NCBI GenBank assembly: GCA_964401385.1
Contig: CAYNYF010000005.1
Span: forward strand, 5,810-69,809
DNA: 64,000 nucleotides
Direction of reading: 5' to 3'
DNA from: an uncultured Planctomycetaceae bacterium
GTDB lineage: Bacteria > Planctomycetota > Phycisphaerae > SM23-33
Made by a program: the position numbers and the translations under genes. Below the pieces are notes generated by a model. That model made no database searches. It had not been told where the DNA came from and saw only the letters and a list, made by a program, of their open reading frames with translations. This document shows, piece by piece, positions 9,903 to 28,234 of this stretch (position 1 is the stretch's first letter; the number at the start of each line of letters is the position of its first letter).

Positions 9903-10079
9903 GTGCTGCCGCTGAGGATATTGGCCGGGGCCCTGATCGGCGCCGCCGCCGGCGTCCTGATGGGCCGGGCACGGCTCTGCCGGACGGAAGGATGCAACGT
10001 CAAGGCCAACATGGTCGCTTCCATCGTGGCCGGGGCGGTCTTCGGCGCCGCCGTTGCGTTTTACTTCAGCCACCGATGA
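9903..10079 (+). CDS. Small hypothetical membrane protein (about 58 aa, GTG start)
   Basis: AGGAG RBS followed by GTG (aaaggagacacaaaGTG). Product has two hydrophobic segments (ILAGALIGAAAGVL, IVAGAVFGAAVAFYF). Weak call. Confidence 0.3.
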   Translation: MLPLRILAGALIGAAAGVLMGRARLCRTEGCNVKANMVASIVAGAVFGAAVAFYFSHR

Positions 10080-10271
10080 AGCATCCGGAGAGGTCTCCCG
10101 AAAGGCGAGAGGTCCAATGAACGAGCGAACCGTTATCGTCGGAGGCGTTGCCGCCGGCGCGGCGCGACAACGTGCGAAATCTCGCGGGAAGCGACGGCCT
10201 TCTGAAGCGTGTGCCGAAGCCGGCAAAGTGACTGTCCGGCAATGGCGCGCTGGTGAGGGGAGGATGGACAC

Positions 10272-11243: not shown

Positions 11244-11264
11244 CAAGGCACAGGCGAGACAGCA

Positions 11265-12707
11265 TCAACGCTCGGCCAGGGTGGCAACGTATTCGCTGAG
11301 CATCTTCGCGTAGCTCGCCGCGGCCGGGCCGGGCTGGACTCGGCGAGTCTCGCCGGCCATCGACCGGTGCAGTTGGTCCAGGGAGGTTTCCTCCTCCAGC
11401 ATGGCCCGGGCGAGGATGGCGGCCCCGAAAGCGCTGATCTCGGGCTCGGTCGGCAGCGTCACCGGCCGGCCGACCACGTCGGCGACGATCTGGGGGGTGC
11501 ATCGGCTGCGGGCGCCGCCGCCGCACATGATCAGCCGACGCGCCGGGCAGCCCGCCACCTCCAGCCAGCCGATCTGCCGCGCCAGCTCCATGCACAGGCC
11601 CTCCACGGTCGCGCGGAGCAGGTGGGCCCGCCCGTGGGCGAGCTTCAGCCCGTGCACGCTGCCGGAGGTCGGGCGCCCCCCCCCGCCCGTGCCGGACAGG
11701 AACGGCCACAGCCTCAGTCCGTCGGAGCCCGGCGGAATCGAATCGATCACCTTGTCGATCGCCTCGGGCGATTCGCCCTCCAGAGCGGTCATCGCCAGGG
11801 CCCAGCGAAAGGCCGAGCCGCCGACGACCAGCGAGAGCATCTGCCCCCATCGCCCCGGCAGGACGTGATCGCACACCCACGCCGACGGCACCACCGGGCT
11901 CATCAGCCGGTCGGTCACCGCCAGCAGGGCCCAGGCCGTCCCCGCCCCGAACATGACGTCGCCGGCGTCGATCGCGCCGCAGCCGAGGGCGGCGGCGTAC
12001 TGGTCGTGCACGGCCGGTCCGACGGGAATGCCGGCGGGCAGGCCCGTCAACTCGGCGGCCTCGGCGCTCAGCGGCCCGGCCGCCTGCCGCGCCGACAGCA
12101 AGTCGGGAAGCTGCTCGGCCCGCAGGCCCATCAGCTCCAGCACGTCCGGGTCGGCCTGGCGGAGGGAGGGATTGTACAGGCAGCAGATGCTCAGCGACGA
12201 GCCGTCGTGGGCCCCCCGCCCGCACAGCCGCCGCACGATGGTGTCGCCCACGAAGCCCACCCGGTTCGGCCAGGCGAGCAGCTCCGGCCGGCGCCGCCGC
12301 AGCCAGAGAAGCTGCCCCAGGGAGATGCCGCTTCGCCCGTGGCCCAGGCGGGAGGCGAAGTACTCGCTGCCCATCCGCTTCGTCAGTTCCCGGTCGAAAG
12401 GCTGTCCGCGCGGGTCCATCCAACTGATTACCGACCCCAGGCAGGTCCCGTCCTCAGCGCGGATCTGCATGGCCGCGCCCTGACTGGAGACGCCCACCGC
12501 CCGCACCTCACCCGGCCTGGCGCCGCCGGCGGCCTGGCGAACGGCCTCCAGCGTCGCCTGCCAGATCCGCTCGATGTCCTGCTCCACGCCGCCGTCGGGG
12601 GTGTGAACCAGCGGCACGGGCGCGGACCCCCTGGCCGCGATCACCCCGTCGGCCTCGACCAGCAGGGCCTTGACGTTGGTCGTTCCCAGGTCCAGTCCCA
12701 GCAGCAT
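11265..12707 (-). CDS. FGGY-family carbohydrate kinase (xylulo-/ribulokinase-like)
   Basis: N-terminal LGLDLGTTNVKA motif; 480 aa; typical FGGY length and C-terminal domain. Confidence 0.85.
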   Translation of the reverse strand: MLLGLDLGTTNVKALLVEADGVIAARGSAPVPLVHTPDGGVEQDIERIWQATLEAVRQAAGGARPGEVRAVGVSSQGAAMQIRAEDGTCLGSVISWMDPRGQPFDRELTKRMGSEYFASRLGHGRSGISLGQLLWLRRRRPELLAWPNRVGFVGDTIVRRLCGRGAHDGSSLSICCLYNPSLRQADPDVLELMGLRAEQLPDLLSARQAAGPLSAEAAELTGLPAGIPVGPAVHDQYAAALGCGAIDAGDVMFGAGTAWALLAVTDRLMSPVVPSAWVCDHVLPGRWGQMLSLVVGGSAFRWALAMTALEGESPEAIDKVIDSIPPGSDGLRLWPFLSGTGGGGRPTSGSVHGLKLAHGRAHLLRATVEGLCMELARQIGWLEVAGCPARRLIMCGGGARSRCTPQIVADVVGRPVTLPTEPEISAFGAAILARAMLEEETSLDQLHRSMAGETRRVQPGPAAASYAKMLSEYVATLAER

Positions 12708-12710
12708 CGC

Positions 12711-14120
12711 CTAAACCTCAACGTATTCAGCGCCCAGCATCTCGGCGGCGATGGCAAGCCGGCCGCGGGCGTCGCCGAAGCACACGGCCAAGTGGTGCGG
12801 GCCGCCGGCCCGGGCATAGGCCGTCAGGAACTCGCGCACGTCGCCGGGCGGGCTCATCTTCGAATGCGGCACGGCCAGTTGCGGCAGCGGGCCGAAGTCC
12901 TCGATCGTCATCGGCGAGGCGATGATCCGCCATTTCTGCCCGGCCGCGAGCGTCAGCGCCGTCAGCGTCGCCTCGCCGGGCTGGAAGCTGCACGCCAGCG
13001 CCAACTGCCGCCCGCGAATCGGCACCAGCGACTTCTTGCGGGCGACCATGCACACCTTGCGGTCCTTCCGGGCCATGGCCACGTTGGCCTCGCCCATGTG
13101 GCTGACCAGCACGGCGTTGCCGGCGAAGTCGATGGTGAAGATCTCGCTGAAGCTGGCCGGCGGGTGCAGCCAGCCCAGGAACGCCGACCCGGCCGCGGAG
13201 ATCAGGTCGCCCTCCCCGCCGAAGCCGACGGCCTCGCCCAGCAGCCGGCTGGCGGCGACGAACGGCAGCGTCTCCACCCTGTCGTCCTCGCCGAAGGCCA
13301 GGAACTGATACGTCAGCGCGTCCAGCCGGTTGTCGCCGACCATTCCCCGCAGGGCGATCTCCGCCCGGGCGGTGGCAGACAGATCTTCGTCGGTGACGTC
13401 CGCGGCGATCTCGTAGGCGTCGCGATACTCCGCCGTCAGCCGGGCGACGTCGGCCGGGGCGGCCTGCCCGGCTCGCCGGACGTACTCAGCCACGGTCAGT
13501 GCCTGCCACTGACAGCCGAGCGTCGTGGCCATCATCGTCGTATCCAGGCCGAAATCGCCCATGCCCGGAAACGGATAGCCCAGCAGCCCCAGCCGCGCCC
13601 TGCCCAGCCGGCTGACCGCGTAGCCGGCGCGGATGTGGTCGGTCAGGGCGGCCACGCCCGCGGCATCGTCCAGGTGGCTGGTCACGTAGCCGAACGGCAC
13701 GCCGGAGCGGACCAGCACGTTGCACAGGTCGTGCGTGCCGTGGACGCCGTGATTGGCGGTCAACTCGGCGTCGCCGTAGGAAGCGTCCACCGCGTACAGC
13801 TCCTGCGTGTTCCAGACCACGATCGGCAGGCGCGTCCGCTTCAGCGCCGGGGCGGAAATCAGGCTGGGCGAGTACGAAAGCAACACCACCAGCAGGACGT
13901 CGACCCCGTCAGCCTCGAAGCCCGCCACCGTCCGCTCCACCGCCTCGCGAGTGAAGACCGCCCCGCCGAAGCGGACCTCGGCCACGTCGGCCAGGGCGGG
14001 CATGAGCCGCTCGCGGACGAACTTCTCCCGGCCCTGGCGAAGCTGGGGTCCGGACCTCTCATAAAACTCCAGCGTCAGCCCCAGCAATCCAACTTTCGGT
14101 CGACTGGAATTTTCCGGCAC
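12711..14120 (-). CDS. L-arabinose isomerase family protein (AraA-like)
   Basis: Blocks alignable to E. coli AraA (GEGDLISAAGSAFL vs GEGDWKTAALLRIM; LVSHMGEANV vs LVLGSHMLEV; AGGPHHLAV vs AGGAHHTVF). GTG start with AGGAGAG RBS. Confidence 0.75.
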   Translation of the reverse strand: MPENSSRPKVGLLGLTLEFYERSGPQLRQGREKFVRERLMPALADVAEVRFGGAVFTREAVERTVAGFEADGVDVLLVVLLSYSPSLISAPALKRTRLPIVVWNTQELYAVDASYGDAELTANHGVHGTHDLCNVLVRSGVPFGYVTSHLDDAAGVAALTDHIRAGYAVSRLGRARLGLLGYPFPGMGDFGLDTTMMATTLGCQWQALTVAEYVRRAGQAAPADVARLTAEYRDAYEIAADVTDEDLSATARAEIALRGMVGDNRLDALTYQFLAFGEDDRVETLPFVAASRLLGEAVGFGGEGDLISAAGSAFLGWLHPPASFSEIFTIDFAGNAVLVSHMGEANVAMARKDRKVCMVARKKSLVPIRGRQLALACSFQPGEATLTALTLAAGQKWRIIASPMTIEDFGPLPQLAVPHSKMSPPGDVREFLTAYARAGGPHHLAVCFGDARGRLAIAAEMLGAEYVEV

Positions 14121-14151
14121 GGCGGTCTCTCCTGACAGGTTGGCGGCTGGG

Positions 14152-14943
14152 TCAGTCCTCGATTTCCTTGCGAACCGGCTCCAGGAAGCTGCGGGGAACG
14201 TCCCTCGCCAGCAGGTCGTTGAAGACCTCGGCCACGGCCGAGGCGTATGTCTCGAGCAGCCGGCGGCCCAGCTCGGCGGTCGCGCGGGTGGCGCGGCCTT
14301 CCACGGCGTCGGGCAGGTCGGTCACCGAGGGCACGCAGAAGACGCCCTCTCGCCCGCGAAGTGCCGGGAACGGAAACTCCCGGCCGTAGAGATCGGTCGG
14401 ACCGTCCACGGCCGCGGACATGTTCACCAAGTCCGGGCGCAGGGCCAGCATCAGCGAGGTCTCGATCAGGCCGGCGTGCGTGATCGGCTCGGCGGCGATT
14501 CTGCCGGCTACCTCGGCGGCCATCTCGTACGGGCTGACGTCAACGTACATGGCGTGCGTCCCCCGCCAGCGCAACTGCCACACGGCCAGTTGGGCCGCCG
14601 GCAGGTTGCCGTGGCCCTGGACGAAGACAATCTTGCGGAAGCCGAGCCGGTGAAGGTCGCCCGCCACGTCGACCAGTTTGGCCAGCAGCGTCGCCGGCGA
14701 GACGCCCGCCGACGCGAACGGCCGGGCCCACTCCACCACGCTGTACCGCACCGTCGGGAAGATGGCCACTCTCTCGGCATCACTGGCGGCCGCGGCGCGG
14801 GCGAGGATGCCCTCGACGATCAGGCTGTCGGTCCCGCAGGGAAGGTGCGGGCCGTGGGCCTCCAGCGACCCCATCGGAATGACCCCGACGCCGCCTTCGG
14901 CCGCCCGACGCAACTGGATGTAGTTGGCTTGTTCGGCTTCCAC
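14152..14943 (-). CDS. Creatininase-family amidohydrolase
   Basis: VIPMGSLEAHGPHLP metal-binding motif typical of the creatinine amidohydrolase family. Confidence 0.8.
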   Translation of the reverse strand: MEAEQANYIQLRRAAEGGVGVIPMGSLEAHGPHLPCGTDSLIVEGILARAAAASDAERVAIFPTVRYSVVEWARPFASAGVSPATLLAKLVDVAGDLHRLGFRKIVFVQGHGNLPAAQLAVWQLRWRGTHAMYVDVSPYEMAAEVAGRIAAEPITHAGLIETSLMLALRPDLVNMSAAVDGPTDLYGREFPFPALRGREGVFCVPSVTDLPDAVEGRATRATAELGRRLLETYASAVAEVFNDLLARDVPRSFLEPVRKEIED

Positions 14944-14968
14944 GCTGCTCGATGCCTCCGGCCCGCCC

Positions 14969-15928
14969 TCACCGGGCGGGGAATTCGATCGGGACCCTTC
15001 TCTCGCTGGTCTCGCTACTGCAATCCGCGGCCACCGCCCCGGACAGGACCAGCTCGCTGTTCAGGATTTGCAGGATGCTGGCCGGCACCAGCGGCGTGAC
15101 CGGCCCGTGGGCGGCCAGGCGGGTGACGAACCGCTGCCACACCGACTCGCCGCAGCCGAAGCCGTTCCAGAAGCTCACGCGCTTGGCCCCGGCCAGCTCC
15201 CTCGGCCCGATGGTGGCGGCCTTGGGCGGCGTCCAGGACCAGTCGCCGGCGCTGCCGGCGTCGGCGTACAGGCAGTTCTGAAGGATGGTGATCGGGTGCA
15301 GCTCGACGATCCTGGCCCCGGCCTGGAGGTAGGCGTCGACGTCGTCGCCGAACTCGACCCCCAGGTGCGGCTCGAAGAAGGCGATGTGCCCGCCCCAGCC
15401 GATGCCGCCGTAGCAGACGTCCGCCCCGCCCGCGTCCTCGAGCATTCCGCTGTAATCGTTGACGTTGTCGGTGCTGGGGAAGTGAATCTGCTCCTCCGGC
15501 ATTCTCAGCTCGGGCCTGATCCGGCCGAAGAAGTCCTGCCACATCCAGTACTGAAAGCCGCCCTTCCAGTCGCGCGGAGCGGTGTTGCCGTCCTGGTCGG
15601 CGTACTCGTCCATGTTGAACGTGTGCACGTGCCGGCAGGAAAGGTTCAGCTCGTTGATGGCGTGGGCGGCCAGGGCGTAGTTGGGGTTCGGCGCCGGCAG
15701 GATCATCACGTGCCGCCGGCCCTCGTCCAGGCTGCGCTGGATCCCGGCCACGATGTCCAGCACGTAGCCGAACTGAAAGGCCGTCTCGTTCTCGATGATG
15801 CGGATCTTGAAGTTCGGATTGGCATGCCGGCAAAGATCCTCCTTCCCGATCTTCCGGACCCGCTCGCACACGGCCGCATCTCGAAAGGGGAGGAACCGGG
15901 CCATCTCATGGGCAAAGCCCGCCGGCAT
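14969..15928 (-). CDS. Glucosamine-6-phosphate deaminase/isomerase (NagB) superfamily protein
   Basis: HTFNMDEY motif (NagB TFNMDEY). GAAAGGAG RBS. Confidence 0.75.
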   Translation of the reverse strand: MPAGFAHEMARFLPFRDAAVCERVRKIGKEDLCRHANPNFKIRIIENETAFQFGYVLDIVAGIQRSLDEGRRHVMILPAPNPNYALAAHAINELNLSCRHVHTFNMDEYADQDGNTAPRDWKGGFQYWMWQDFFGRIRPELRMPEEQIHFPSTDNVNDYSGMLEDAGGADVCYGGIGWGGHIAFFEPHLGVEFGDDVDAYLQAGARIVELHPITILQNCLYADAGSAGDWSWTPPKAATIGPRELAGAKRVSFWNGFGCGESVWQRFVTRLAAHGPVTPLVPASILQILNSELVLSGAVAADCSSETSERRVPIEFPAR

Positions 15929-15955
15929 GTCGCGCTCCTTTCTCCCCGGCGCGTT

Positions 15956-17098
15956 TCATTGCATCTGCGGCAGATCGACCGCGGCCTGCGTCTCGGCCGA
16001 TTCGCGAACCGCCTCCAGCACGCGCTGGAGGTGAATGCCCTCTTGCAGCGAGGGGCTGGGCTGGCCCCCCTCGGCGATAGCCCGCAGGAACGAGTACAGG
16101 CTGTGGACATGGCCGCGGACCCAACCGACGGGGAACTTCGGTCCGGGGAACTTCCCGCCGGGGGCGGGGTACCGGTGCACGCAGGCGATCTGCTGCCAGC
16201 CGCGCCCGCCGAGATCGCCGTCGGGCGGTCGGCCGTCGTAGATCTCCAGGTAGTTCGGCTGCATGGAGTTGAAGCGGATCGCCCCGTGCCGGCCGTGAAT
16301 CTCAAACCGCAGCTCGTCCTCCGTGCCCGTGGCGATCTTGCTGACGTCCACGCTGCCAAAGGCGCCGTCGGCGCTTTGCAGCAGCACCAGCGCCGCGTCC
16401 TCGACGTCGATCTTCATCATCGTTCCGGGCTCATCCAGGCTGGGGCGCTCGGCCGCCCAGATCCGGCTGAGACAGTGGGCCCGCTGGAACGGCCCGATCA
16501 GCCACCACAGCAGGTCGATCACGTGCGAGCCCAGGTCGCGGATCACCCCGCCGCCGGCGGCCGCGGTCGACTTCCAGTTCACCGCCTTGTTCGGATCGGC
16601 GCTGCCGCTGTGCAGATACGCCGCCCGGAAGTGCGTCACCTTGCCCAGGAAGCCCTCCTCCAGAAGCCCCCTGGCCTTCAGCGTGGCCGGGTAGAACCGG
16701 AACTGAAACGCCACCTGTGCCTTCGCCCGGTAGCCGGCAAGCAGCCCGGCAAGTTCCTCGGCCTCGGCCAGACTGGCGGTAACGGGCTTGTCGACGTAGA
16801 CGTGCTTGCCCGCCTTGATGGCCGCCGCCAGGGCCGGGAAGTGCGCCTGGTTCGGCGTGCAAACGTGAACCAGATCCACGTCGTCGGCCTCGATCACCTC
16901 CCGCGGGTCGGTCGTGTGCCGCTCGAAGCCGCCGGTCTCGCGCGCCGCCGCGGCCAGCTCGTCGGTGAGTTCGCAGACCGCCTTCAGCCGGCAGGCGAGA
17001 GGCTCCGGGCTGTAGTACAGGGGGATGGTCTTGTGGGCGAACGTATGCATCTTGCCCATGAACCCAAACCCCAGCACGCCCACGCCCAGAGTCTTCAT
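15956..17098 (-). CDS. Gfo/Idh/MocA-family NAD(P)-dependent oxidoreductase
   Basis: Start taken at MKTLGVGVLGFGFMGKMH (Rossmann GxGxxG) with GAGGAG RBS. The track ORF up to 17572 is an upstream extension. Confidence 0.85.
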   Translation of the reverse strand: MKTLGVGVLGFGFMGKMHTFAHKTIPLYYSPEPLACRLKAVCELTDELAAAARETGGFERHTTDPREVIEADDVDLVHVCTPNQAHFPALAAAIKAGKHVYVDKPVTASLAEAEELAGLLAGYRAKAQVAFQFRFYPATLKARGLLEEGFLGKVTHFRAAYLHSGSADPNKAVNWKSTAAAGGGVIRDLGSHVIDLLWWLIGPFQRAHCLSRIWAAERPSLDEPGTMMKIDVEDAALVLLQSADGAFGSVDVSKIATGTEDELRFEIHGRHGAIRFNSMQPNYLEIYDGRPPDGDLGGRGWQQIACVHRYPAPGGKFPGPKFPVGWVRGHVHSLYSFLRAIAEGGQPSPSLQEGIHLQRVLEAVRESAETQAAVDLPQMQ

Positions 17099-17133
17099 GC
17101 CGCGCTCTCCTCGGTGCCAATCCGGATCGGCCG

Positions 17134-18144
17134 CTACAATACGGTCTCCAGCAACTTCATTCCATTTCCGAAAAAGACGGCCTCGAAAAAGCCTCGCCCC
17201 AGGTGCAGCCGGCCGGCCGCCTTCTTGATCGCTCGAAGCTCCTCGTACAGGAACGCGGTGAAGATAAGCTTCTGCTGCTCGTCGGAAATCGACAGGTGCC
17301 ACGGAACCGGCGTCACGTACGTGTACTGGTCGTTGATCTCGACGGATTTTCCCGGCGCCAGGGCGATGGGAGTATCCGTGGCGAACAGGATCTTCTCCTG
17401 CGGCACCCGCCGGAAGAGATACTCCATCACCTCCCAGTTGTTCAGCATCGCCAGGTCGAAATACAGGTTCGGCAGGTCCTTCAGTCCGGCCAGGTTGCCC
17501 ACGATGTTCTTGAGGAAATACGCCCTGCCGATGTGTGCAAGCACGATCTTTGCCCGCGGCCAGGCCGAGCAAAGCTCCACGATCTGGGCCTGGTTGAGCG
17601 GATCGGCCAGGCGCCGGCTGCGGGGGATGTGCAGCATCACGATCAGGCCGAGATCGTCGGCCACGCGCATGATCGGCTCCGGGAGCATCTCGTGGATTTC
17701 CACCAGGTTGGGGTCGTCCTTCCTGACGTAGTCCAGGTAGGGCTTGAGGCCCAGGAAGCCCGACTCGATCACGTCGCGCCGAACCTCGCCGGCATCCTCG
17801 GCAGGGTCGACCAGGCGGAAGCCGAAGAACTGCCGTCTGTCGGCCCCGGCGGCGACGTATCGGTTGTTGGCGACCATATCGTACTGGACGTGGGGCAGGC
17901 CGAAGCAGACGGCCGACGTCTCCCGGCCGGGATAGGCCTCGGCGAGGTCCTGCCGCAGATCGTCGAAGCCGTACCTGCTGATGAGATGCCCGGCGGAGGA
18001 GTAGGTGTGCCCGGCCGGCAGAGTCTTCTCGTCGAAGACGTGGACGTGAAAGTCCAGCACCCTGGCCGGCACGAACTCATCCAGCTCTTCCCGCCAGATT
18101 GTCAGGTTGCGCGGGTGTTTCGTCGTCTGGCGCCACACGGGCAA
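17134..18144 (-). CDS. Amidohydrolase-2 family (TIM-barrel metal-dependent hydrolase/decarboxylase) protein
   Basis: DFHVHVF metal-binding motif and the ATDTPIA region typical of amidohydrolase-2. Start uncertain (TTG at 18144 or a downstream GTG). Confidence 0.7.
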   Translation of the reverse strand: MPVWRQTTKHPRNLTIWREELDEFVPARVLDFHVHVFDEKTLPAGHTYSSAGHLISRYGFDDLRQDLAEAYPGRETSAVCFGLPHVQYDMVANNRYVAAGADRRQFFGFRLVDPAEDAGEVRRDVIESGFLGLKPYLDYVRKDDPNLVEIHEMLPEPIMRVADDLGLIVMLHIPRSRRLADPLNQAQIVELCSAWPRAKIVLAHIGRAYFLKNIVGNLAGLKDLPNLYFDLAMLNNWEVMEYLFRRVPQEKILFATDTPIALAPGKSVEINDQYTYVTPVPWHLSISDEQQKLIFTAFLYEELRAIKKAAGRLHLGRGFFEAVFFGNGMKLLETVL

Positions 18145-18195
18145 TTGCTTTCACTTTCGAGGCCCGCGGCCTGCGGCAGGCCGTCGCGGGCGAGA

Positions 18196-19335
18196 TTACG
18201 CCGGGGCGTCGCCCCAGTCGGGCACGTCCATCCATTCGCCGTCCTTCAGCGCGGATTTGTGGGCCATCACGCCGGGGGCGAAGTATCGCGCCGCCTCCCA
18301 GGCGTTGACGCTCGGCCGGCGGCCGGCGGCGACGGCATCGACGAACTCGTGCACCAGGTAGGCGTGGGAGCCGCCGTGCCCGCCGTAGACCTCCACGTCG
18401 CTGGAGCTTTCCCGGCTGAACGCCTCCAGCACCTCCGGCGGCAGCGGGTCGCGCATCTCCTCCGGCGCCAGCGGCGTGATGTCGCTCTTGGTCACCCAGT
18501 GCGCCCCCCAGGGCTCGTCGATGAACGAGCCCTCCGTGCCGAACAGGCGGAACCCCTCGCGGCCGCCATGGCCGACGCGGCGGTACTCGCACACGCGCGC
18601 GACCGCCCCGCCGCTCAGCCGGAAAAACGCCGTCTCGTTGCTGAAGACGTTGCCGGAGACCGTATCCTGGCGGAACCAGTCGTCGTTGGGGTGCACGTAA
18701 CCGATGGCCGAGACGCGCGTGACCCGCTCCCTCATCACCGAGAGGAACCCGCCGATGGAGTGCGTGGGATAGTGCATGGGCACGCCGCCGCTGTGGGAGA
18801 TGTCCCACTGGTCGCCGCGGCGATTCCGCGCCACCTCGCGCAGGCCGTGGTCCAGGTCGTGAAGATACTCGCCCTCGGCCAGGACGAAGTTGCCGAAGGC
18901 CTCCTCGGCCGCGCGGCGGCGGCAGTACATCGCCTGCGGGCGGTAGTAGCTGGTCTCGCCCATCATGTAGTGCATGCCCGTCCGCGTGCAGGCGGCGATG
19001 ATCTTGTCGCACCAGTCGAGCATCTTGTCCCCCTCGGCCAGGCAGATCATGGGCACGGCGCTGTAGACGTGCTTGCCGGCCTCCATGGCCTGGATCGCCT
19101 GCGGGGCGTGCAGCCACGGCTGGGTGATGATGGCGAGGGCCTGAACGTCGGTCCTGCAGATCTCGTCCAGGCTGGCGTAGGTCTCGGCGATGCCGAATCG
19201 CTCGGCCACCTTGGCCAGCCGCCCGGCCTTGACGTCGCAGAGGGCGATCCGATCCACCAGGGGATGGTCCCGGAAGAGCCGGACGAACCCCTGCCCGAAC
19301 ATCCCCACGCCGACGATGCCAATGCTGATTCCCAT
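18196..19335 (-). CDS. Gfo/Idh/MocA-family oxidoreductase
   Basis: Start at MGISIGIVGVGMFGQGF (Rossmann). The track ORF up to 19746 is an upstream extension. Confidence 0.85.
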   Translation of the reverse strand: MGISIGIVGVGMFGQGFVRLFRDHPLVDRIALCDVKAGRLAKVAERFGIAETYASLDEICRTDVQALAIITQPWLHAPQAIQAMEAGKHVYSAVPMICLAEGDKMLDWCDKIIAACTRTGMHYMMGETSYYRPQAMYCRRRAAEEAFGNFVLAEGEYLHDLDHGLREVARNRRGDQWDISHSGGVPMHYPTHSIGGFLSVMRERVTRVSAIGYVHPNDDWFRQDTVSGNVFSNETAFFRLSGGAVARVCEYRRVGHGGREGFRLFGTEGSFIDEPWGAHWVTKSDITPLAPEEMRDPLPPEVLEAFSRESSSDVEVYGGHGGSHAYLVHEFVDAVAAGRRPSVNAWEAARYFAPGVMAHKSALKDGEWMDVPDWGDAPA

Positions 19336-19388
19336 GGTTTTCCCTTTCGCGTCTTTGCTCCGGTTCGCTTGTCTTCCTGCCCCGCGGC

Positions 19389-20579
19389 CTAGGCGTGGCC
19401 GCGGCCGTGCTCGCGGTAGTGATGCAGGCCTTCCATGAAGGCGCGGACGTTTTCCCGATTCGTGCCGGGGGCGATGCTGCTGCTGGCGCCCAGCATCAGC
19501 CCGACCTCCGGTCCGTTGGCCACGAGCCACTTCATCTGGTCCACCACGTCCTGCCGGCTGCCGAAGGGCAGCGTCGTGGTCACGGACACGCCGGCGATGA
19601 TGAACAGGGGCCCGCCCGCGCGGTCCTTCATTTGGCAGATGCGGGCGTAGTCCATGCCGTCCTCGTATTGAAAGCCCTGGAACCCGCCGATTCCCGCCTC
19701 GATCAGCCGCGGCACCATCGCCATCAGGTTGCCGTCGCAATGCCACAGCAGGCGGATGCCGGCGTCGCCGAACGGCTCGATCGCCCGGGCGAAGTGCGGC
19801 AGCCAGATCGCGTCCAGCGTCTTGACGTCCACCAGCGTCCCGCGCGAGTCAGCCATGTCGTGATCCAGCCGGAGCTGCCGCGGCAGGCCGCCCTCGACGA
19901 TGGCCCTGGCGGCCAGGCGGTTCCGCAGCACGGACAGGTCGGCCTGCTGGGCGAAGTCCCGCTCCATCACGTCAGGGAACAGGGCGTAGGCCGCGAAGTA
20001 GTCGGCGTAGCCGTAGGCGCCGTAGTGCAGCCCGGGAAAGCTCTGGAAGCCGTCGCTGTAGGGCCCCTTGAGCAGGTCGCCCCCGAAGCGCCTCTGAAGG
20101 CTCGCCTCGCTCTCGATCAGCTCGGCCAGGCGCGCGGGGGCATCGGCGTCAAACGCCTCGATCTCGGCGGCCCGGCGGGGGAAAACCACCGTCTCCATGT
20201 GCTCGACGACGGCCTCGGGGGAGTCGATCTCGATGCCGTCCAGGACGACCCTCTCGGCCCCGGTGGTGGCCTTTCGCGGCGTGGCGGAGGAAAACCCGTC
20301 CTGCTCCATGGTCAGCGGGTTGGTGGGGATGAACTGATCGATAAAGCACGCGCCGGCGAGCTGCTGGAAGGCTAGGTAGACCGTCTCCGGATCGGCGGCG
20401 AAATCGCCGGGCCGCCGCCCGGTCGCCTGCTCGATGAAGGGCACGTCCATGACGTGGACGATCCAGCCGGGAATGCCCCGGACGGGCTTCATGGCGAGGG
20501 TGTCCCAGGCCAGTTGCGCCCGGCCGCCCCATCTGCCCGCCAGGGATTCGTAGTACCCTTGCATGGTTCCGTCCTGCAC
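19389..20579 (-). CDS. Uroporphyrinogen-decarboxylase (URO-D)-like family protein
   Basis: About 396 aa; overall URO-D/MtaA-like TIM-barrel character. Not a canonical HemE. Confidence 0.55.
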   Translation of the reverse strand: MQDGTMQGYYESLAGRWGGRAQLAWDTLAMKPVRGIPGWIVHVMDVPFIEQATGRRPGDFAADPETVYLAFQQLAGACFIDQFIPTNPLTMEQDGFSSATPRKATTGAERVVLDGIEIDSPEAVVEHMETVVFPRRAAEIEAFDADAPARLAELIESEASLQRRFGGDLLKGPYSDGFQSFPGLHYGAYGYADYFAAYALFPDVMERDFAQQADLSVLRNRLAARAIVEGGLPRQLRLDHDMADSRGTLVDVKTLDAIWLPHFARAIEPFGDAGIRLLWHCDGNLMAMVPRLIEAGIGGFQGFQYEDGMDYARICQMKDRAGGPLFIIAGVSVTTTLPFGSRQDVVDQMKWLVANGPEVGLMLGASSSIAPGTNRENVRAFMEGLHHYREHGRGHA

Positions 20580-20600
20580 GCTCTCCGGCCGGGGCGAGGG

Positions 20601-22001
20601 CTACCCGCGGCCCAGCTCCTCGGCCGTCTCGCCGATGGCCTGGTCGATGATGTCCAGCCCGCGCAGCAACTCGGCCTCGTTCATCACGATCGGCGGGCTC
20701 ATGCGAAGGATGTGCCCGGCCGGGATCCACGCCAGGCCCTTCCGGAAGGCCTTGACGTAGACCATCCTGCCGGCCTCGTCAAATGGTTCTTTCGTGGAGC
20801 GGTCCTTGACCAGCTCCACGCCCATCAGGCAGCCCCTCGCCCGCACGTCGCCGATGATTCCGTGGGAGGACTTCATCTCCTCCAGCCGCTTGCCGGCGAT
20901 CTCGCCCAGCCGGCGGCTGTTTTCCAGCAGCCCCTCTTCCTCGATCACCTCGATGGACGCCAGCGCGGCCGCACACGCCATCGGGTTGCCGCCGTAGCTG
21001 CTGGAGGCGCTGATCCGATCGAAGTTGTCCCGAATCCCCTCGCGGGCGACGCAGGCGGTGACGGGAAAACCGTTGCCCAGCCCCTTGCCCAGCGTCACCA
21101 CGTCCGGCAGCACGCCCCAGTGCTCCATGCACAGCCACCGTCCGGTGCGGCCCATGCCGGTGAGTACCTCATCCGCCACCAGCAGGATGCCGCGCTCGTC
21201 GCAGAAGCCCCGCAGCGCGGGGAAGAAATCATCCGGCGGGGTGATGGTGCCGGCCCAGCCCTGGATCGGCTCCAGCACGAACGCCGCCACCTGAGCGGTC
21301 GTGCCCTCCCGGATGAACTGGTCGTAGTAGGAAAGGTAGGCCTGCGTGTCCGGCGAGCCGTCCGGGCGCGCCCACAGCGGCCGGTACGTGTCCGGCCGGG
21401 GCAGCATGTAGAACCCCGGCATCCGCGTGGGCGCGTACATCGGATTCATCCGGGCGCAGGAAACCGACCCCAGCGTCTTGCCGTGGAAGTCCATGAAGCC
21501 CGACAGGAACTCCGTCCGCCCGGTCGCGGCCCGGCAGACGCGCATGGCCGCCTCCACCGCCACCGTGCCGCTGTCGTAAAGCTGCATGCCGTTCAGATCG
21601 CCCGGCAGAATCTCGGCGAGCTTCCTGACCAGCGCCTCCTTGACCGGCGTGGTGAAGTCGTGGCAGTTCATCAGCCGGCGGGCCCAATGGGCCACCGCCT
21701 CGCTGACCTTCGGGTGGCAGTGGCCCAGGCTGGTGACGTAGATGCCGCTGGAGAAGTCCAGGTACCGGTTGCCGTCCACGTCCTCCAGCGTAACCCCGCG
21801 GCCGCGGCTCCAGCAGACCGGAAAGAGCCTCACCTGGCCGGACAGCCCCTTGTAGTGGCCGGCGGCCGAGGCGTGCAGGCGGCGGCTCTCCGGCCCGGGC
21901 GGCGTGGTCACAATGTTCGGCACCCGCGACAGGTCCGCGCGGCACCAGTCCCGGTCGTACTCAACCTTGGGAATGATCTGCTCCGCTGCCGTCTTCGACA
22001 T
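20601..22001 (-). CDS. Class-III (omega/GABA-AT-like) PLP-dependent aminotransferase
   Basis: LVADEVLTGMGRTGRW and the lysine motif TLGKGLGNGFP. Start set at MSKTAAEQ with GAAGGAAGG RBS; the track's GTG at 22022 is also possible. Confidence 0.85.
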   Translation of the reverse strand: MSKTAAEQIIPKVEYDRDWCRADLSRVPNIVTTPPGPESRRLHASAAGHYKGLSGQVRLFPVCWSRGRGVTLEDVDGNRYLDFSSGIYVTSLGHCHPKVSEAVAHWARRLMNCHDFTTPVKEALVRKLAEILPGDLNGMQLYDSGTVAVEAAMRVCRAATGRTEFLSGFMDFHGKTLGSVSCARMNPMYAPTRMPGFYMLPRPDTYRPLWARPDGSPDTQAYLSYYDQFIREGTTAQVAAFVLEPIQGWAGTITPPDDFFPALRGFCDERGILLVADEVLTGMGRTGRWLCMEHWGVLPDVVTLGKGLGNGFPVTACVAREGIRDNFDRISASSSYGGNPMACAAALASIEVIEEEGLLENSRRLGEIAGKRLEEMKSSHGIIGDVRARGCLMGVELVKDRSTKEPFDEAGRMVYVKAFRKGLAWIPAGHILRMSPPIVMNEAELLRGLDIIDQAIGETAEELGRG

Positions 22002-22014
22002 CGCTGGCCTTCCT

Positions 22015-23409
22015 TCATCCACGGGCGCCCGCGGCCGACGACCGCAGCAGCGACCGGAACTTCTCGATGATGAAATCCACGATCTGCTCGTCCGCCGCCA
22101 GGGAGAGCTTGGTCAGGATCGTGCTGTGCCCGGCGTGATACGCGTGCACGCGGACCCACAGCCCGGCCTCGACCGCCCGGCGGTGAAAATCCAGCGCGTC
22201 CTCGACCCGGCGGAACTTCAGCCCCGCCAGGTGCCGCTTGCCGCGGGCGTCCTGAACGACGCCGCCGAACTCCTCGGCCAGTTCCGAGAGCCGCCCCAGG
22301 AAGCGGTCGCCCACGGCCGCGAGCCGCTCGCCCTGCCCGGAGACCATGTCCATCACGCACAGCCCGACGTAGCTGGCCAGCGAGGCGCTGCCGTTGGTGT
22401 TGATCGCGTCATACTGGCCGAGCACATCGTAACGGCTCTTGTACAACACCGCCGCCAGCGGATGGAAGCCCGCGGTCATGCCCTTGCCGGCGATGACCAT
22501 GTCCGGGACGAAGCCCATCGTGCGGTAGGCGAAGATCTCCGGCTGCCAGAAGCCGGTCTGGATTTCGTCCATGCACATGATCGCGCCGGCCTCGTCGCAC
22601 AGCCGCCGAGTGAGTTGCAGGTACGACGGCTGGAGGGGGAGAGCCTCGCGGTTCATCATGATCGGCTCGGCCCAGAAGGCGGCGACGCGCCGGCCATGGC
22701 GGCGAAAGACCGCCTTCAACTCTTCGGCATCGTTCGGCTGGACGGTGGCGACTTCCAGGCCCTTGACGTACTGCCGCCACATGCCGCGCATGTACTGGGG
22801 AACCATGTCGGTGCCGTGGTAGTTGCCGTCCAGAACCACCACCACCGGCTTGCCCCTGCCCCGGTGGGCGCGCTTATACCAGACAAGCTGCATCTTCAGG
22901 GCCGCCTCGCAGGCGACCGAGCCGGTGCAGCAGCCCAGCAGCACCGTGTCGATGGGGTCCCGCTGGCCGGGGGGGCTGGCCGCCTCCACCAGCCGGTGGG
23001 CCAGGCGCTTCACCGGCGCCTGCGGGATGTTGGCATGGTTGTCCCAGACGACCCCGGCCGCGACGGCCTCGTTGATGGCCGCGCACAACTGCGGGTGGTT
23101 GTAGCCCCAGAGCATCTGGTAGTGCCCGGAGGTGCAGTCCAGGTACAGCCGCCGCTGCTCGGTGAGGTAGAACAGCCCGCGCCCGACCAGCAGGTCGTCG
23201 CAGGCGGCCGTCTGGCTTCCGCCGAAGGAGTCCTGAAGGGCCGTCTTGTCGACCGGCGTCAGCGCGGGGATTTCCTCAATGGTCTGGCCGACGCGGGCCA
23301 GGAGCTGGTCGGTCGGCCCGGTGAGGAAATCCAATCCGGCCCGCATGCTGGCGAGCGTCTGCCCGCCGTCGGGCCCCAGCAACGAAGCGGCTGTCGAGAG
23401 CTGTGTCAT
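22015..23409 (-). CDS. Class-III PLP-dependent aminotransferase (second, tandem)
   Basis: MCMDEIQTGFWQ and AGKGMTAGFHP motifs; 464 aa. Confidence 0.85.
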   Translation of the reverse strand: MTQLSTAASLLGPDGGQTLASMRAGLDFLTGPTDQLLARVGQTIEEIPALTPVDKTALQDSFGGSQTAACDDLLVGRGLFYLTEQRRLYLDCTSGHYQMLWGYNHPQLCAAINEAVAAGVVWDNHANIPQAPVKRLAHRLVEAASPPGQRDPIDTVLLGCCTGSVACEAALKMQLVWYKRAHRGRGKPVVVVLDGNYHGTDMVPQYMRGMWRQYVKGLEVATVQPNDAEELKAVFRRHGRRVAAFWAEPIMMNREALPLQPSYLQLTRRLCDEAGAIMCMDEIQTGFWQPEIFAYRTMGFVPDMVIAGKGMTAGFHPLAAVLYKSRYDVLGQYDAINTNGSASLASYVGLCVMDMVSGQGERLAAVGDRFLGRLSELAEEFGGVVQDARGKRHLAGLKFRRVEDALDFHRRAVEAGLWVRVHAYHAGHSTILTKLSLAADEQIVDFIIEKFRSLLRSSAAGARG

Positions 23410-23413
23410 GTTG

Positions 23414-24223
23414 CTACTCCAGACTGTACTTGGCGATCATCGCCTCCGGGGCGGCGTTTTCCCTGACGACCTCGCACAGGGCGGCCTGAAAGGCCTGGGG
23501 GTCGGGAACCTGGATGGCGTTGCGTCCGAAGACCACCCCGGCCGCGCCGGTCGAAACCTCCGCCGCCGCCAGGGCAAGCGCCTCCCGCTGCGTGGGCAGC
23601 CGCTCGGCCCCGAGGGCGAGCACGGGAACCGGACACGTGCCGGTGACCTCCTCGAATCGGCAGGTGCAGAAGGTTTTGATCGCGTCGGCGCCCAGCTCGG
23701 CCACGATCCGGCTGCCGATGCGCACGTTCTCATGTAGCTCCTCTGCCGACATGTCGGCGTGTCCGGTCGGGAAATACTCGCCGATGACGGGAATGCCCAG
23801 ACGGTGGCAGCGGTTCATCGCCCGGGCGAACACGGACACGTTGGCGGCGTCGCGCTGCTCGGACCCGGTCCGCAGCGTCAGCGACACCAGGGCGAGGTCC
23901 ATCCCCTCGCGGAGGGCGTCCTCGGCATCGTAGCAGTCGGCGCTGGGGGCCTCGCGGCAGCCCCACGTGAAGCAGTACACCGAGTTCCAGTTCAGCCGGA
24001 CCGCGGCCAGTGGTCGGCGCCGCCCGGCGAAGATGCCGCAGCAGTGTCGCAGCATCCCCGGCGACAGCAGGACCGCGTCGACGGCCGGGTTGATCTTCCC
24101 GGCCGTGGCGGGCAGGTCCTCCATGCCGGCGATGGGCCCGTCGAACAGGCCGTGGTCGATGGCGATGATGACCGCCCTGCCGTCGCCCAGCAGCCGCCGC
24201 ATCCGGATTTCACGACCGTCCAT
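23414..24223 (-). CDS. Class I aldolase (DeoC/FbaB/LacD-type TIM-barrel aldolase family)
   Basis: AVIIAIDHG N-terminal motif and GADAIKT lysine region typical of this aldolase family. Confidence 0.7.
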   Translation of the reverse strand: MDGREIRMRRLLGDGRAVIIAIDHGLFDGPIAGMEDLPATAGKINPAVDAVLLSPGMLRHCCGIFAGRRRPLAAVRLNWNSVYCFTWGCREAPSADCYDAEDALREGMDLALVSLTLRTGSEQRDAANVSVFARAMNRCHRLGIPVIGEYFPTGHADMSAEELHENVRIGSRIVAELGADAIKTFCTCRFEEVTGTCPVPVLALGAERLPTQREALALAAAEVSTGAAGVVFGRNAIQVPDPQAFQAALCEVVRENAAPEAMIAKYSLE

Positions 24224-24241
24224 ATTCTTTCCTCGCTTCCG

Positions 24242-25021
24242 TCATGCCAGCGTCACCTTGACTCCCCGCCGCCGCATGGCCGCCACGAGCGACCCGCTCG
24301 CCCGCCGATCCGTGATGAGTTCATCCACGTCCTGGATGCGGGCGAACCTGGCGGCGGCGGTGCGCCCGAGCTTGTCGGCGTCGGCCACGACGATCACCCG
24401 CCGCGCCCGCCGGACCATCAGGGCGGCCACGCCGGCAACCTCCGCATCGTCGGCGAAGCTGCCTCGCTGCGGGTCCACGCCGTCGCTGCCGACGAAGGCC
24501 ACGTCGGCCCGCATCTGCCTTAGCGCCGCCTCCGTCTCGGCCCCGGCTAGGTCCGGCGAGCCGTCGCGGACGCGCCCGCCCAGCAGCACCAGCGCCACCG
24601 GCTCGCGCGACCACAGCTCGGCCGCCACCGCCAGCGAGGACGTGACCACGGTGCAGCGCCGCCTCGTCCGCGCCAGGGCCCGGGCCAGCGCCAGGGTCGT
24701 GGTGCCGGTGTCCACGAAGACCGTATCGCCCGGCCTGACCCTCCCGACCGCGGCCGCGGCGATGCGGCGCTTCTCAGGCAGGTGCGACAGGTGCCGCTGG
24801 CTGAAGGCGTATTCGAAGGTGATCCTCCCGGCCGGCACCGCCCCGCCATAGCTGCGGATGGCCACGCCGGCCGAGGCCAGCGCCGCCAGATCGCGCCGGA
24901 TCGTCATTGCCGTCACGCCGAGCCTCTCGGCCGCCTCGGAAGTGCGGATCCGCTCGCTCGATCGCAGCAGCCGGGTCAGGACCCGCCGGCGAAGCTCTGC
25001 CTCTCTGGAAGATCGCGACAT
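24242..25021 (-). CDS. DeoR-family transcriptional regulator
   Basis: N-terminal HTH (AAERLGVTAMTIRRDLAAL) plus DeoR C-terminal sugar-phosphate-binding domain. First gene of the 13-gene minus-strand cluster. Confidence 0.85.
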   Translation of the reverse strand: MSRSSREAELRRRVLTRLLRSSERIRTSEAAERLGVTAMTIRRDLAALASAGVAIRSYGGAVPAGRITFEYAFSQRHLSHLPEKRRIAAAAVGRVRPGDTVFVDTGTTTLALARALARTRRRCTVVTSSLAVAAELWSREPVALVLLGGRVRDGSPDLAGAETEAALRQMRADVAFVGSDGVDPQRGSFADDAEVAGVAALMVRRARRVIVVADADKLGRTAAARFARIQDVDELITDRRASGSLVAAMRRRGVKVTLA

Positions 25022-25037
25022 GAAACCACACGCCCAA

Positions 25038-25058
25038 TAATGTTCACTTCGAACATTA
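25038..25058. promoter_or_regulatory. Perfect palindrome TAATGTTC-acttc-GAACATTA; candidate DeoR operator
   Basis: 8-bp perfect inverted repeat with 5-bp spacer, 17 bp upstream of the deoR-family start, in the divergent region shared with the MFS transporter. Confidence 0.45.
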
Positions 25059-25167
25059 TAACCGCCGCCCCCGCCACTGCAAGCGCCAACCCGCCGCCGC
25101 GCGCGGCCGGCGCCACGGCCGCGCCGGCTTGTCGGCCAAGCCCGCGTCGGGTAGAATTGGTCCGAAC

Positions 25168-28083: not shown

Positions 28084-28234
28084 TGGGTCTTCCTTTCGCA
28101 GCGGACATTAGAACACGCCCGGCCGTCCGATGCGAGCATCTCCGCCGGCCCGGCCGCGCCAGCGCCGACCCCGCACGCGCTGGCCTTCGAGCGGGCGTTC
28201 GGCTACACTTTCCGGCCTGCAAGGGAAGGCAGAA

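Follow-up and report, generated by a model that had tools for sequence, protein, structure and literature searches.

Introduction

Several described pathways share part of their logic with a 12-gene operon that we found in a 64,000 nucleotide stretch of DNA (hereafter, the window) from an uncultured Planctomycetaceae bacterium (assembly GCA_964401385.1, contig CAYNYF010000005.1, positions 5,810 to 69,809). With the L-fucose and L-rhamnose operons (FucI-FucK-FucA with the DeoR-type FucR, and RhaA-RhaB-RhaD), it has in common the order isomerase, FGGY kinase, aldolase, ending in a triose phosphate and an aldehyde, as well as a DeoR-family regulator. Its sole aldolase, however, is a class I enzyme of the DhnA/LsrF type, whereas FucA and RhaD belong to class II and are metal-dependent, and no operon protein attains the FucK, RhaB or FucR cut-offs. 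Moreover, eight genes have no counterpart in these operons: those for two pyridoxal phosphate (PLP) enzymes, two Gfo/Idh/MocA (GFO) oxidoreductases, a NagB-like protein, two amidohydrolases and a URO-D-fold protein. By analogy, the overall logic resembles that of a fucose/rhamnose-type pathway to which two amine-removal modules have been added.

The NagA/NagB and Aga pathways for N-acetylglucosamine (GlcNAc) and N-acetylgalactosamine (GalNAc) are alike in that deacylation is followed by a deaminating isomerisation on a NagB fold, under a DeoR-family regulator (comparable to AgaR in family only). The kinase is of the FGGY family here, and a ROK protein or a phosphotransferase system (PTS) there; AgaS and AgaY/Z are absent from the operon, and phosphorylation, which precedes deamination in those pathways, would here probably follow it. 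Side-by-side GFO and PLP aminotransferase genes are also the mark of the NtdC/NtdA (kanosamine), GnnA/GnnB and WbpB/WbpE couples. Those couples serve biosynthesis, with sugar phosphates or nucleotide sugars as substrates and aminotransferases of the DegT type, whereas the context here is catabolic and the aminotransferase belongs to class III. The inositol pathway of Thermotoga maritima (IolG, IolM, IolN) likewise has two GFO-type dehydrogenases and a creatininase-family hydrolase in one cluster, but the scores of our proteins are far under the IolN (48 bits against a cut-off of 245) and IolG (128 against 355) thresholds; IolO and the uronate enzymes are absent, and aminotransferases, a NagB-like protein, an isomerase and an aldolase are present instead. 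Finally, there are the levoglucosan dehydrogenase and 3-keto-glycoside pathways. Levoglucosan dehydrogenase, which oxidises C3 of the pyranose, is the closest solved relative (PDB 6a3f) of one of the two GFO proteins, yet the match to its profile (LevoglcsnDh) is 261 bits against a cut-off of 650, and eliminases of the sugar-phosphate-isomerase/epimerase type (LgdB-like) are not in the cluster.

We propose, with a probability of roughly one half, that the operon is catabolic and repressed by DeoR, and that its substrate is an unusual amino-deoxy sugar, probably N-acylated, which would be deacylated, deaminated by two routes, isomerised, phosphorylated and cleaved, the chemical steps being those suggested by protein family and gene neighbourhood. 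As far as profile, structure and literature searches reach, the cluster is uncharacterised. None of the 12 proteins attains any NCBIfam equivalog cut-off, and full-text literature searches turned up no named pathway of such content, in agreement with a first-pass annotation of the same DNA, which could match the gene set to no textbook pathway.

Results

Organization of the operon

Analysis of the open reading frames (ORFs) of the window revealed an unbroken chain of 12 co-directional genes on the minus strand, running from 25021 to 11265. They are listed here in transcription order, followed by the two flanking genes and a candidate operator.

24242-25021, minus: DeoR-family regulator, 259 amino acids (aa), first gene of the operon (Pfam HTH_DeoR 53 bits, DeoRC 161 bits)
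23414-24223, minus: DhnA/LsrF-type class I aldolase, 269 aa (Pfam DeoC/LacD PF01791, 51 bits against a threshold of 23.8)
22015-23409, minus: AT_A, divergent class-III PLP enzyme, 464 aa (Pfam Aminotran_3, 138 bits)
20601-22001, minus: AT_B, typical class-III PLP enzyme, 466 aa with the ATG at 22001 as start (the ORF itself reaches a GTG at 22022; Pfam Aminotran_3, 328 bits)
19389-20579, minus: URO-D/MtaA-fold protein, 396 aa (Pfam URO-D, 22.4 bits against a cut-off of 23.9; fold)
18196-19335, minus: GFO_A, Gfo/Idh/MocA oxidoreductase, 379 aa (Pfam GFO_IDH_MocA)
17134-18144, minus: Amidohydro_2-family metal hydrolase, 336 aa (Pfam PF04909, 63 bits)
15956-17098, minus: GFO_B, Gfo/Idh/MocA oxidoreductase of the levoglucosan/scyllo-inositol dehydrogenase clade, 380 aa (Pfam, NCBIfam and PDB matches)
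14969-15928, minus: NagB-superfamily deaminase/isomerase-like protein, 319 aa (sub-threshold TIGR00502, PDB sequence matches, fold)
14152-14943, minus: creatininase-family metal amidohydrolase, 263 aa (Pfam, 158 bits)
12711-14120, minus: AraA-like aldose-ketose isomerase, 469 aa (Pfam AraA_central and Arabinose_Iso_C)
11265-12707, minus: FGGY-family sugar kinase, 480 aa, last gene of the operon (Pfam FGGY_N and FGGY_C)
10272-11243, opposite strand: convergent flanking GH130 gene, its stop codon 21 bp from that of the FGGY gene (Pfam)
From a probable ATG at 25168, plus: divergent MFS gene, flanking the operon upstream of deoR (Pfam)
25037-25059: candidate DeoR operator, a perfect AT-rich 9-5-9 palindrome, 16 bp upstream of the deoR ATG

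After correction of three gene starts (GFO_B to 17098, GFO_A to 19335, and AT_B probably to 22001), the intergenic gaps are, by rising coordinate, 3, 31, 25, 27, 35, 51, 53, 21, 13, 4 and 18 bp. The first-pass annotation had announced thirteen co-directional genes with gaps of about 3-50 bp, while naming twelve in its own list; twelve are present, all on the minus strand, and the gaps range from 3 to 53 bp. The one candidate for a 13th gene, an ORF of 539 aa at 9627-11246 (minus), was rejected: it has no Pfam match and overlaps the GH130 gene on the other strand, i.e. it is a shadow ORF. Because the window has a GC content of ~69% throughout, long ORFs are abundant in all six frames, and the large ORFs opposite the operon, which are devoid of domain matches, were discarded as shadow ORFs too.

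All family assignments made at first pass were upheld. Ten of the 12 proteins scored above Pfam thresholds, and the exceptions were the URO-D-like protein, which lies just under and was settled by its fold, and the NagB-like protein, without Pfam match, settled by TIGR00502, PDB matches and fold. At the level of named functions, the IolN, levoglucosan dehydrogenase, AgaR, FucK, XylB and AraA equivalogs were all considered and rejected, the scores being far under the cut-offs. In the closest relative (locus L081, see below), gene calls gave the same layout as in the window. We conclude that the arrangement is beyond chance: 12 genes are on the same strand, separated by 53 bp at most, and their order is kept in L081 at 68-87% protein identity.

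Conservation of the modules in related loci

Related loci were fetched with three of the proteins only as anchors (NagB-like, AT_B and URO-D-like), and the 12 window proteins were mapped onto the 150 loci obtained, many of which are short. Among these, the complete 12-gene set was found in the window only. The most informative loci are the following (percentages are protein identities to the window).

L081 (GCA_975967245.1): all window operon genes except GFO_A (11 of 12), in unchanged order, at 68-87% protein identity; the GH130 gene is convergent there too
L085: aldolase, AT_A, AT_B, GFO_B, NagB-like, creatininase, AraA-like; without URO-D-like, GFO_A and Amidohydro_2
L084: GFO_B, NagB-like, creatininase, AraA-like
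L150 (metagenome-assembled genome, MAG, of Phycisphaerales): DeoR, aldolase (77%), Amidohydro_2 (68%), AT_B (80%), AraA-like (63%), FGGY (60%), SSF transporter, GFO
L092: AT_B, FGGY, GFO, GFO_A-like, GDSL esterase, URO-D-like, GFO_B-like, NagB-like
L145: AT_B, creatininase, FGGY, cupin (lyxose-isomerase-like), URO-D-like, beside a GH123 gene
L146: aldolase (74%) and AT_B pair
L147: DeoR and AT_B pair
L144: AT_B, GFO_B (69%), GFO/GNAT fusion
L082 (Adhaeretor mobilis CP036263.1, 1788811-1809764): DeoR, aldolase, NagB-like, Amidohydro_2, FGGY, Amidohydro_2

L150 contains orthologues of 7 of the 12 window genes, six of them in one co-directional backbone and the seventh, URO-D-like (67%), nearby; NagB-like, creatininase and AT_A genes are absent from it. 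In L082, a second set lies just upstream of the first (NagA-like, a NagB-like paralogue, AT_B, a second DhnA aldolase and an SSF transporter). After both sets come a double GDSL esterase, an HpcH aldolase and a GH29 fucosidase; Adhaeretor mobilis is a cultured organism, as are Oleiharenicola lentus and Arenibacter catalasegens, which likewise have related clusters. Three adjacencies recurred among the loci: AT_B with a GFO gene of the levoglucosan/scyllo-inositol dehydrogenase type, AT_B with the aldolase, and the block GFO_B-NagB-like-creatininase.

The window cluster is thus a mosaic. It unites the largest set so far of modules which are combined differently from locus to locus, and which are found separately in Planctomycetota, Verrucomicrobiota, Kiritimatiellia and beyond. 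It consists of an L150-like backbone (DeoR, aldolase, Amidohydro_2, AT_B, AraA-like, FGGY) into which AT_A, URO-D-like, GFO_A and the GFO_B-NagB-like-creatininase block are inserted. The homology and neighbourhood search that the first-pass annotation had called for gave a divided answer: no characterised pathway was matched, but the 12 genes are not one conserved unit either, only modules on a smaller backbone.

The two flanking genes that had been reported, MFS and GH130, are both present in the window as described, but their linkage to the cluster is inconsistent in the relatives, and we rejected both as parts of the system. Two relatives include the region upstream of the cluster, and the MFS gene is in neither: the divergent neighbour of deoR in L081 encodes a prepilin-type protein, and L150 has its SSF transporter inside the cluster. 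GH130 is retained in the closest relative L081 only, and in L150 the SSF transporter stands in its place.

The NagB-like protein

The NagB-like protein scored 53.2 bits with TIGR00502 (cut-off 236.9), and its PDB sequence matches are glucosamine 6-phosphate (GlcN6P) deaminases. Its AlphaFold model (mean predicted confidence, pLDDT, of 82) gave the same answer: the top 26 fold matches in the PDB are all GlcN6P deaminases (best E value ~4e-15, template modelling (TM) scores 0.55-0.79), and 6-phosphogluconolactonases come next. The residues were compared to those of E. coli NagB, with a reference sequence verified to be 100% identical to PDB 1cd5. The catalytic Asp72, His143 and Glu148 (E. coli numbering) are kept, as D107, H181 and E186. 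Arg172, Lys208 and Asp141 are replaced by Leu, Gln and Gly respectively, and three residues are deleted in the Thr41-Gly42-Gly43-Thr44 loop. Arg172, Lys208 and the 41-44 loop are, we take it, the elements that hold the 6-phosphate of the substrate in E. coli NagB.

This pattern extends to the family. In an alignment of 71 members covering all three subfamilies (see below), D72 and H143 were present in 71 of 71 and E148 in 70, the remaining one having Asp. R172, K208 and the 41-44 loop were missing in all 71: R172 is changed to L, V or M, the loop is 2-3 residues shorter, and D141 is replaced by G, C, A, S or T. In 57 canonical NagB proteins (28-66% identical to that of E. coli), R172, K208, G42 and Ser/Thr44 were invariant, T41 was found in 56 and D141 in 55. 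The NagB-like family therefore looks like a NagB-type deaminase/isomerase without the canonical 6-phosphate binding. Since the catalytic residues are kept and the phosphate clamp is lost, its substrate is probably a non-phosphorylated (or 6-deoxy) amino sugar. Identity with canonical NagB was rejected on the score and the missing phosphate-binding residues. Furthermore, in L008 and L105 a canonical NagB, with R172 and K208, is encoded within 10 kb of the NagB-like gene, which means that the latter is no simple replacement for NagB and that the two are not interchangeable.

Some 3,500 homologues of the NagB-like protein were found across many phyla, with identities of 67-85% in Planctomycetota, Kiritimatiellia and Verrucomicrobiota. 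The first genome-wide scan for the family was swamped by canonical nagB, which shares the TFNMDEY motif, and about 23 of its 80 loci truly belong to the NagB-like family. After cleaned clustering, the gene was seen to adjoin PIG-L deacetylases in 12 loci (19 in the first pass) and NagA-like amidohydrolases in 11, with ROK proteins and ABC transporters also near. This context points to amino-sugar catabolism. Two other subfamilies were distinguished. Distant members (39-49% identity), in Opitutaceae, Arenibacter and Calditrichia, have as neighbours AT_B (60-66% identical), DhnA aldolase, FGGY, DeoR, a NagA-like Amidohydro_1 protein, a ceramidase-like amidase and Amidohydro_2, to which the Arenibacter cluster adds an SSF transporter and an SGSH-type sulfatase. 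Members of a third subfamily, 50-63% identical and found in Acidobacteriota, Chloroflexota and Actinomycetota, lie beside PIG-L deacetylases, ROK proteins and ABC transporters, with almost none of the other families of the window nearby.

Two further observations concern these loci. The NagB-like gene is duplicated in tandem in an Anaerolineae MAG (L003, 5868-6773 and 6805-7713), and possibly also in L130. Two small Cys-rich proteins (~150-160 aa), one of them with a weak ATC_hydrolase match, recur beside the distant-type cluster, in L022 (184-627 and 645-1130), L023, L125 and L018.

The class-III PLP enzymes and the oxidoreductases

AT_B carries its PLP-lysine in the motif TLGKGLGNG, and its closest PDB entries are a Pyrococcus enzyme resembling 4-aminobutyrate aminotransferase (GABA-AT) and amino-acid racemases. 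It has 6831 homologues at E<=1e-60, and its orthologues in other phyla are 60-66% identical. AT_A has the PLP-lysine motif IAGKGMTAG together with MDEIQTG, and its orthologues were seen, among the fetched loci, in L081 and L085 only.

As for the oxidoreductases, GFO_B has as its closest solved relatives levoglucosan dehydrogenase 6a3f (232 bits) and the scyllo-inositol/L-glucose dehydrogenase 5ya8 (165 bits), the substrates of which are secondary alcohols on pyranose or cyclitol rings; its NCBIfam scores for levoglucosan dehydrogenase and IolG are the two given in the Introduction. The GFO_B gene adjoins AT_B or the NagB-like gene in several loci. GFO_A (IolG score 54 bits against 355) is the sole operon gene without a counterpart in L081, and a 49% identical homologue was found in L092.

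The surroundings of AT_B were counted in the window and in those 19 fetched loci that contain an AT_B orthologue. A GFO gene comes directly after AT_B in six, and ~1.4 kb off in one more (L136). The DhnA aldolase abuts AT_B in six as well, and is one gene off, across AT_A or Amidohydro_2, in three more; a DeoR gene is directly upstream of AT_B in five. An aminotransferase beside a dehydrogenase of this kind is the classical set-up for the interconversion of amine, ketone and hydroxyl at one ring carbon, known from the biosynthesis of kanosamine and of GlcNAc3N. By analogy, the recurrent AT_B-GFO adjacency suggests the same interconversion logic. The L150 cluster, with AT_B and GFO but without a NagB-like gene, fits AT_B and GFO being an amine-removal route by themselves. 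In L144, an oxidoreductase of GFO/GH109_C type fused to a GNAT acetyltransferase is encoded at 12728-14422, directly downstream of AT_B and the GFO_B orthologue.

The isomerase, the kinase and the aldolase

The AraA-like protein reached 87 bits with the NCBIfam AraA profile (cut-off 622). Its central and C-terminal Pfam domains are above threshold, and no match to the N-terminal domain was reported. Aligned with Geobacillus AraA (4r1o), it is identical at four of the four Mn ligands (E, E, H and H, in GGEGD, SFSE, SHM and PHH), which we take to be Glu306, Glu331, His348 and His447 of the Geobacillus enzyme; presumably it is also related in fold to FucI. The aldolase is below the NCBIfam cut-offs (best ADH synthase, 141 bits against 241, and LsrF, 126 against 297), and its best PDB matches are MJ0400 and LsrF. 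It has the motif GADAIK at residues 178-183, in which Lys183, as assigned by eye, is the candidate for the Schiff-base lysine of the family. For the FGGY kinase, the best score was XylB (240 bits against 380); those for FucK and RhaB were 127 against 471 and 42 against 528. We had considered the kinase subtype as a clue to the phosphorylation site and dropped it: all cluster-linked FGGY kinases are sub-threshold XylB-like, hence uninformative.

The isomerase-kinase-aldolase trio recognised at first pass is real, with all metal ligands of the AraA-like protein in place. In L145, the genes for AT_B, creatininase and FGGY are accompanied by a cupin (lyxose-isomerase-like) gene where the AraA-like gene would be expected. 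We see in this a non-orthologous displacement of the isomerase step, which speaks for an aldose-ketose isomerisation being needed.

The amidohydrolases and the URO-D-fold protein

No NCBIfam match was found for the Amidohydro_2 protein, the orthologues of which are 78% identical in L081 and 68% in L150. The creatininase-family protein has the motifs LEAHGPHLP and QGHGN; its NCBIfam scores are MftE 89 bits (cut-off 172), creatininase 78 (235) and IolN 48 (245), and its PDB matches are 3lub and creatininase.

The URO-D-like protein has an identical database entry that begins five codons later. Its Pfam match is confined to the C-terminal third, and some close homologues have a precomputed PF01208 match. 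The AlphaFold model (pLDDT 90) gave MtaA 4ay7 as best PDB match (E value 3e-9), together with URO-D entries, at TM scores of 0.52-0.66 and 9-16% identity; at the level of the predicted model, the fold confirms the family call. H280, C281, D282, E306 and C315 are invariant among 30 homologues. Tentatively, we liken this set to the His/Cys/Glu/Cys zinc sites known from MetE and MtaA. In distant cluster-linked homologues the first motif is HSC (L083) or HND (L145). The URO-D-like protein was rejected as a tightly linked partner of the system: its gene stands alone in two of three further loci (L148 and L149), and the fold search returned only distant MtaA and URO-D matches.

The regulator and its candidate operator

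The DeoR protein is under all NCBIfam equivalog cut-offs (GlpR 188 bits against 300, AgaR 166 against 260, FucR 92 against 259). The 146-bp intergenic region between deoR and the MFS gene contains the palindrome ATAATGTTC-ACTTC-GAACATTAT. The pattern ATAATGTTC-N5-GAACATTAT matches the window once, and none was expected (100 shuffles). An identical palindrome precedes deoR in L081 (461-485). The core TGTTC-N5-GAACA is found in L146, 40 bp upstream of the aldolase-AT_B pair, and in L150 a palindrome TGTTCGATAT-N5-ATATCGAACA ends at the deoR start. Given this position and conservation, we regard the palindrome upstream of deoR as a candidate operator.

Promoter and terminator scans were at chance level, save for a promoter-like site before the MFS gene. 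This site (25129-25157, plus), the sole sigma-70-like match between 10 and 27 kb, shares the intergenic region with the palindrome and closely precedes the probable MFS start at 25168; overall, such sites are no more frequent than expected by chance.

Proposed pathway

The catabolic reading would run as follows. Uptake would be ensured by the MFS protein here, and by SSF transporters in the relatives. N-acyl groups may be stripped, or a lactone opened, by the two metal amidohydrolases (creatininase-family and Amidohydro_2). An amine on a ring carbon would be converted to a ketone by AT_B (perhaps AT_A), and the ketone to a hydroxyl by GFO_B (perhaps GFO_A), while the amine at C2 would be removed by the NagB-like protein from a non-phosphorylated (or 6-deoxy) amino sugar, yielding a ketose and ammonium. 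The AraA-like isomerase would turn the de-aminated aldose into a ketose, the FGGY kinase would phosphorylate the ketose, and the DhnA-type class I aldolase would split the product into a triose phosphate and an aldehyde. DeoR is predicted to bind the palindrome upstream of its own gene, and to be released on binding a sugar-phosphate intermediate.

Because the cluster has a dedicated isomerase-kinase-aldolase trio, and not an entry into glycolysis, the de-aminated sugar is probably a 6-deoxyhexose, a pentose or a rare hexose, and not glucose. This would favour the amino-6-deoxy sugars of bacterial surface glycans, a more specific and more speculative proposal. The first-pass annotation had left the choice between an amino- or deoxy-sugar and an aminocyclitol. 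The NagB-like context and the AT_B-GFO adjacency speak for the former; the latter finds little support, with an IolN score of 48 against 245 and no role for a NagB-like protein.

Several points weigh against the scheme. The NagB-like family has other invariant Arg and Lys residues, which could form an alternative anion site, so that the substrate could be phosphorylated, sulfated or carboxylated. Class-III PLP enzymes are not the usual sugar aminotransferases, which are of the DegT type. As AT_B has its closest solved relatives among amino-acid aminotransferases and racemases, a carboxylate on its substrate is conceivable. The known members of Amidohydro_2 are mostly lactonases or decarboxylases, not N-deacylases. 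Finally, the NagB-like gene was absent within 10 kb in all five loci fetched via AT_B homologues, and URO-D-like homologues often stand alone, which means that the linkage between modules is loose.

Alternative explanations

A first alternative is a composite operon, in which at least two independent catabolic modules, for different substrates, would have come under one promoter in this lineage by happenstance. Module content does vary by genome: L081 is without GFO_A, L085 without URO-D-like, GFO_A and Amidohydro_2, L150 without NagB-like, creatininase and AT_A, and URO-D-like homologues are isolated in L148 and L149. We nevertheless think a composite operon unlikely, as the same families are found together in varied orders and phyla (L092, L145, L082 and L022), the gaps are short enough for translational coupling, and the cluster is headed by a single regulator with a single candidate operator. 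Another scheme is an oxidative route through amino-aldonates: GFO_B would oxidise C1 of an amino sugar to give a lactone, Amidohydro_2 would act as lactonase, AT_B would convert a 2-amino-2-deoxy-aldonate to a 2-keto acid, and NagB-like, isomerase, kinase and aldolase would form a second branch. It accounts for the nearest solved relatives of AT_B, which act on alpha- or omega-amino acids, for the aldose C1 dehydrogenase activity that the PDB name of 5ya8 indicates, and for the adjacency of Amidohydro_2, a family that includes sugar lactonases, to GFO_B in the window and in L081. The window cluster, however, is devoid of a 2-keto-acid kinase, a reductase and an aldolase of the 2-keto-3-deoxy-6-phosphogluconate (KDPG) type; AT_B stands beside GFO without a lactonase in L011, L085 and L144; and in the L150 backbone AT_B goes together with an aldose isomerase, the substrate of which must be a free aldose and not an aldonate. 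This route appears improbable to us.

A shade more improbable still is an aminocyclitol/inositol route, in which the transaminases would convert an inosamine to an inosose, the two GFO proteins would act like IolG and IolM, the creatininase-family protein would open the diketo ring, as IolN does in Thermotoga, and further steps would process the linear product. The kinship of GFO_B with scyllo-inositol dehydrogenase (5ya8, 165 bits) and, weakly, with IolG, the weak IolN match, and the resemblance of two GFO genes plus one creatininase-family gene to IolG/IolM/IolN are what it can build on. Yet the IolN score is below those for MftE and creatininase, and like that for IolG far from its cut-off, and among solved structures GFO_B is closest to levoglucosan dehydrogenase, which works on a pyranose. 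Known inositol routes have no role for a NagB-like protein, an AraA-like isomerase or a DhnA aldolase, and the NagB-like family is otherwise linked to N-acetyl-sugar deacetylases. Last, the cluster could be read as biosynthetic, the dehydrogenase and the aminotransferase making an amino sugar or aminocyclitol in the aminating direction. Such couples are indeed best known from biosynthesis (NtdC/NtdA, GnnA/GnnB), but DeoR, FGGY, aldose isomerase, aldolase, amidohydrolases and, in the relatives, SSF/MFS importers are catabolic hallmarks, and the cluster has no glycosyltransferases, nucleotidyltransferases or DegT-type aminotransferases, which makes this reading very improbable indeed.

Implications of the catabolic reading

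Amino-deoxy sugars are common in bacterial cell-surface polysaccharides. Complex glycans have major degraders in Planctomycetota, Verrucomicrobiota and Kiritimatiellia, many genes of which have no assigned function. Full-text literature searches yielded no catabolic pathway for amino-6-deoxy sugars. Returning to the proposal of a catabolic operon for an amino-deoxy sugar, a bolder version of it can be formulated, as a tentative idea that we hold to be on the doubtful side. The NagB-like proteins would be a large unrecognised branch of the NagB superfamily, deaminating non-phosphorylated, possibly 6-deoxy amino sugars. Together with the class-III transaminase/GFO couple, they would make up a catabolic route, the first to be described, for amino-deoxy sugars from bacterial surface glycans (quinovosamine, fucosamine, bacillosamine, or 3- and 4-amino-6-deoxyhexoses), one that deaminates first, phosphorylates after and has a fucose-like ending. 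If the catabolic reading is right, a gap in the recycling of amino-sugar carbon and nitrogen would be filled, and several thousand genes now called 'hypothetical', or mis-named 'glucosamine-6-phosphate deaminase' or '4-aminobutyrate aminotransferase-like', would receive a function; if wrong, the cluster remains an ordinary uncharacterised sugar operon. Of wider interest is the loss of the phosphate clamp in a large branch of the NagB superfamily. The operon and its recurring modules offer concrete candidates: a clamp-less NagB-fold deaminase, a highly conserved class-III PLP enzyme with a pyranose-type ketoreductase, a DhnA aldolase, a URO-D-fold protein and a candidate operator.

Other genes of the window

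Neither tRNAs nor Rfam matches were detected in the window. Besides the operon and its flanks, the window contains genes for DNA polymerase I (3730-6450, minus), an FAA-hydrolase-family protein (28130-29062, plus), an RCC1-repeat protein (29319-30371, plus) and an MMPL transporter (32692-34962, plus).

About 11 kb from the operon, two adjacent genes (36548-37849 and 37877-39367, plus) encode sulfatases with an SGSH_C domain (C-terminal domain of N-sulphoglucosamine sulphohydrolase). SGSH_C sulfatases are also found in or beside related clusters, in Arenibacter (L022, 14752-16272) and in L146 (16412-17869), and one is encoded in L148 (3356-4786), ~5 kb from the stand-alone URO-D-like gene. The presence of these sulfatases near the clusters may hint at sulfated amino-sugar substrates.

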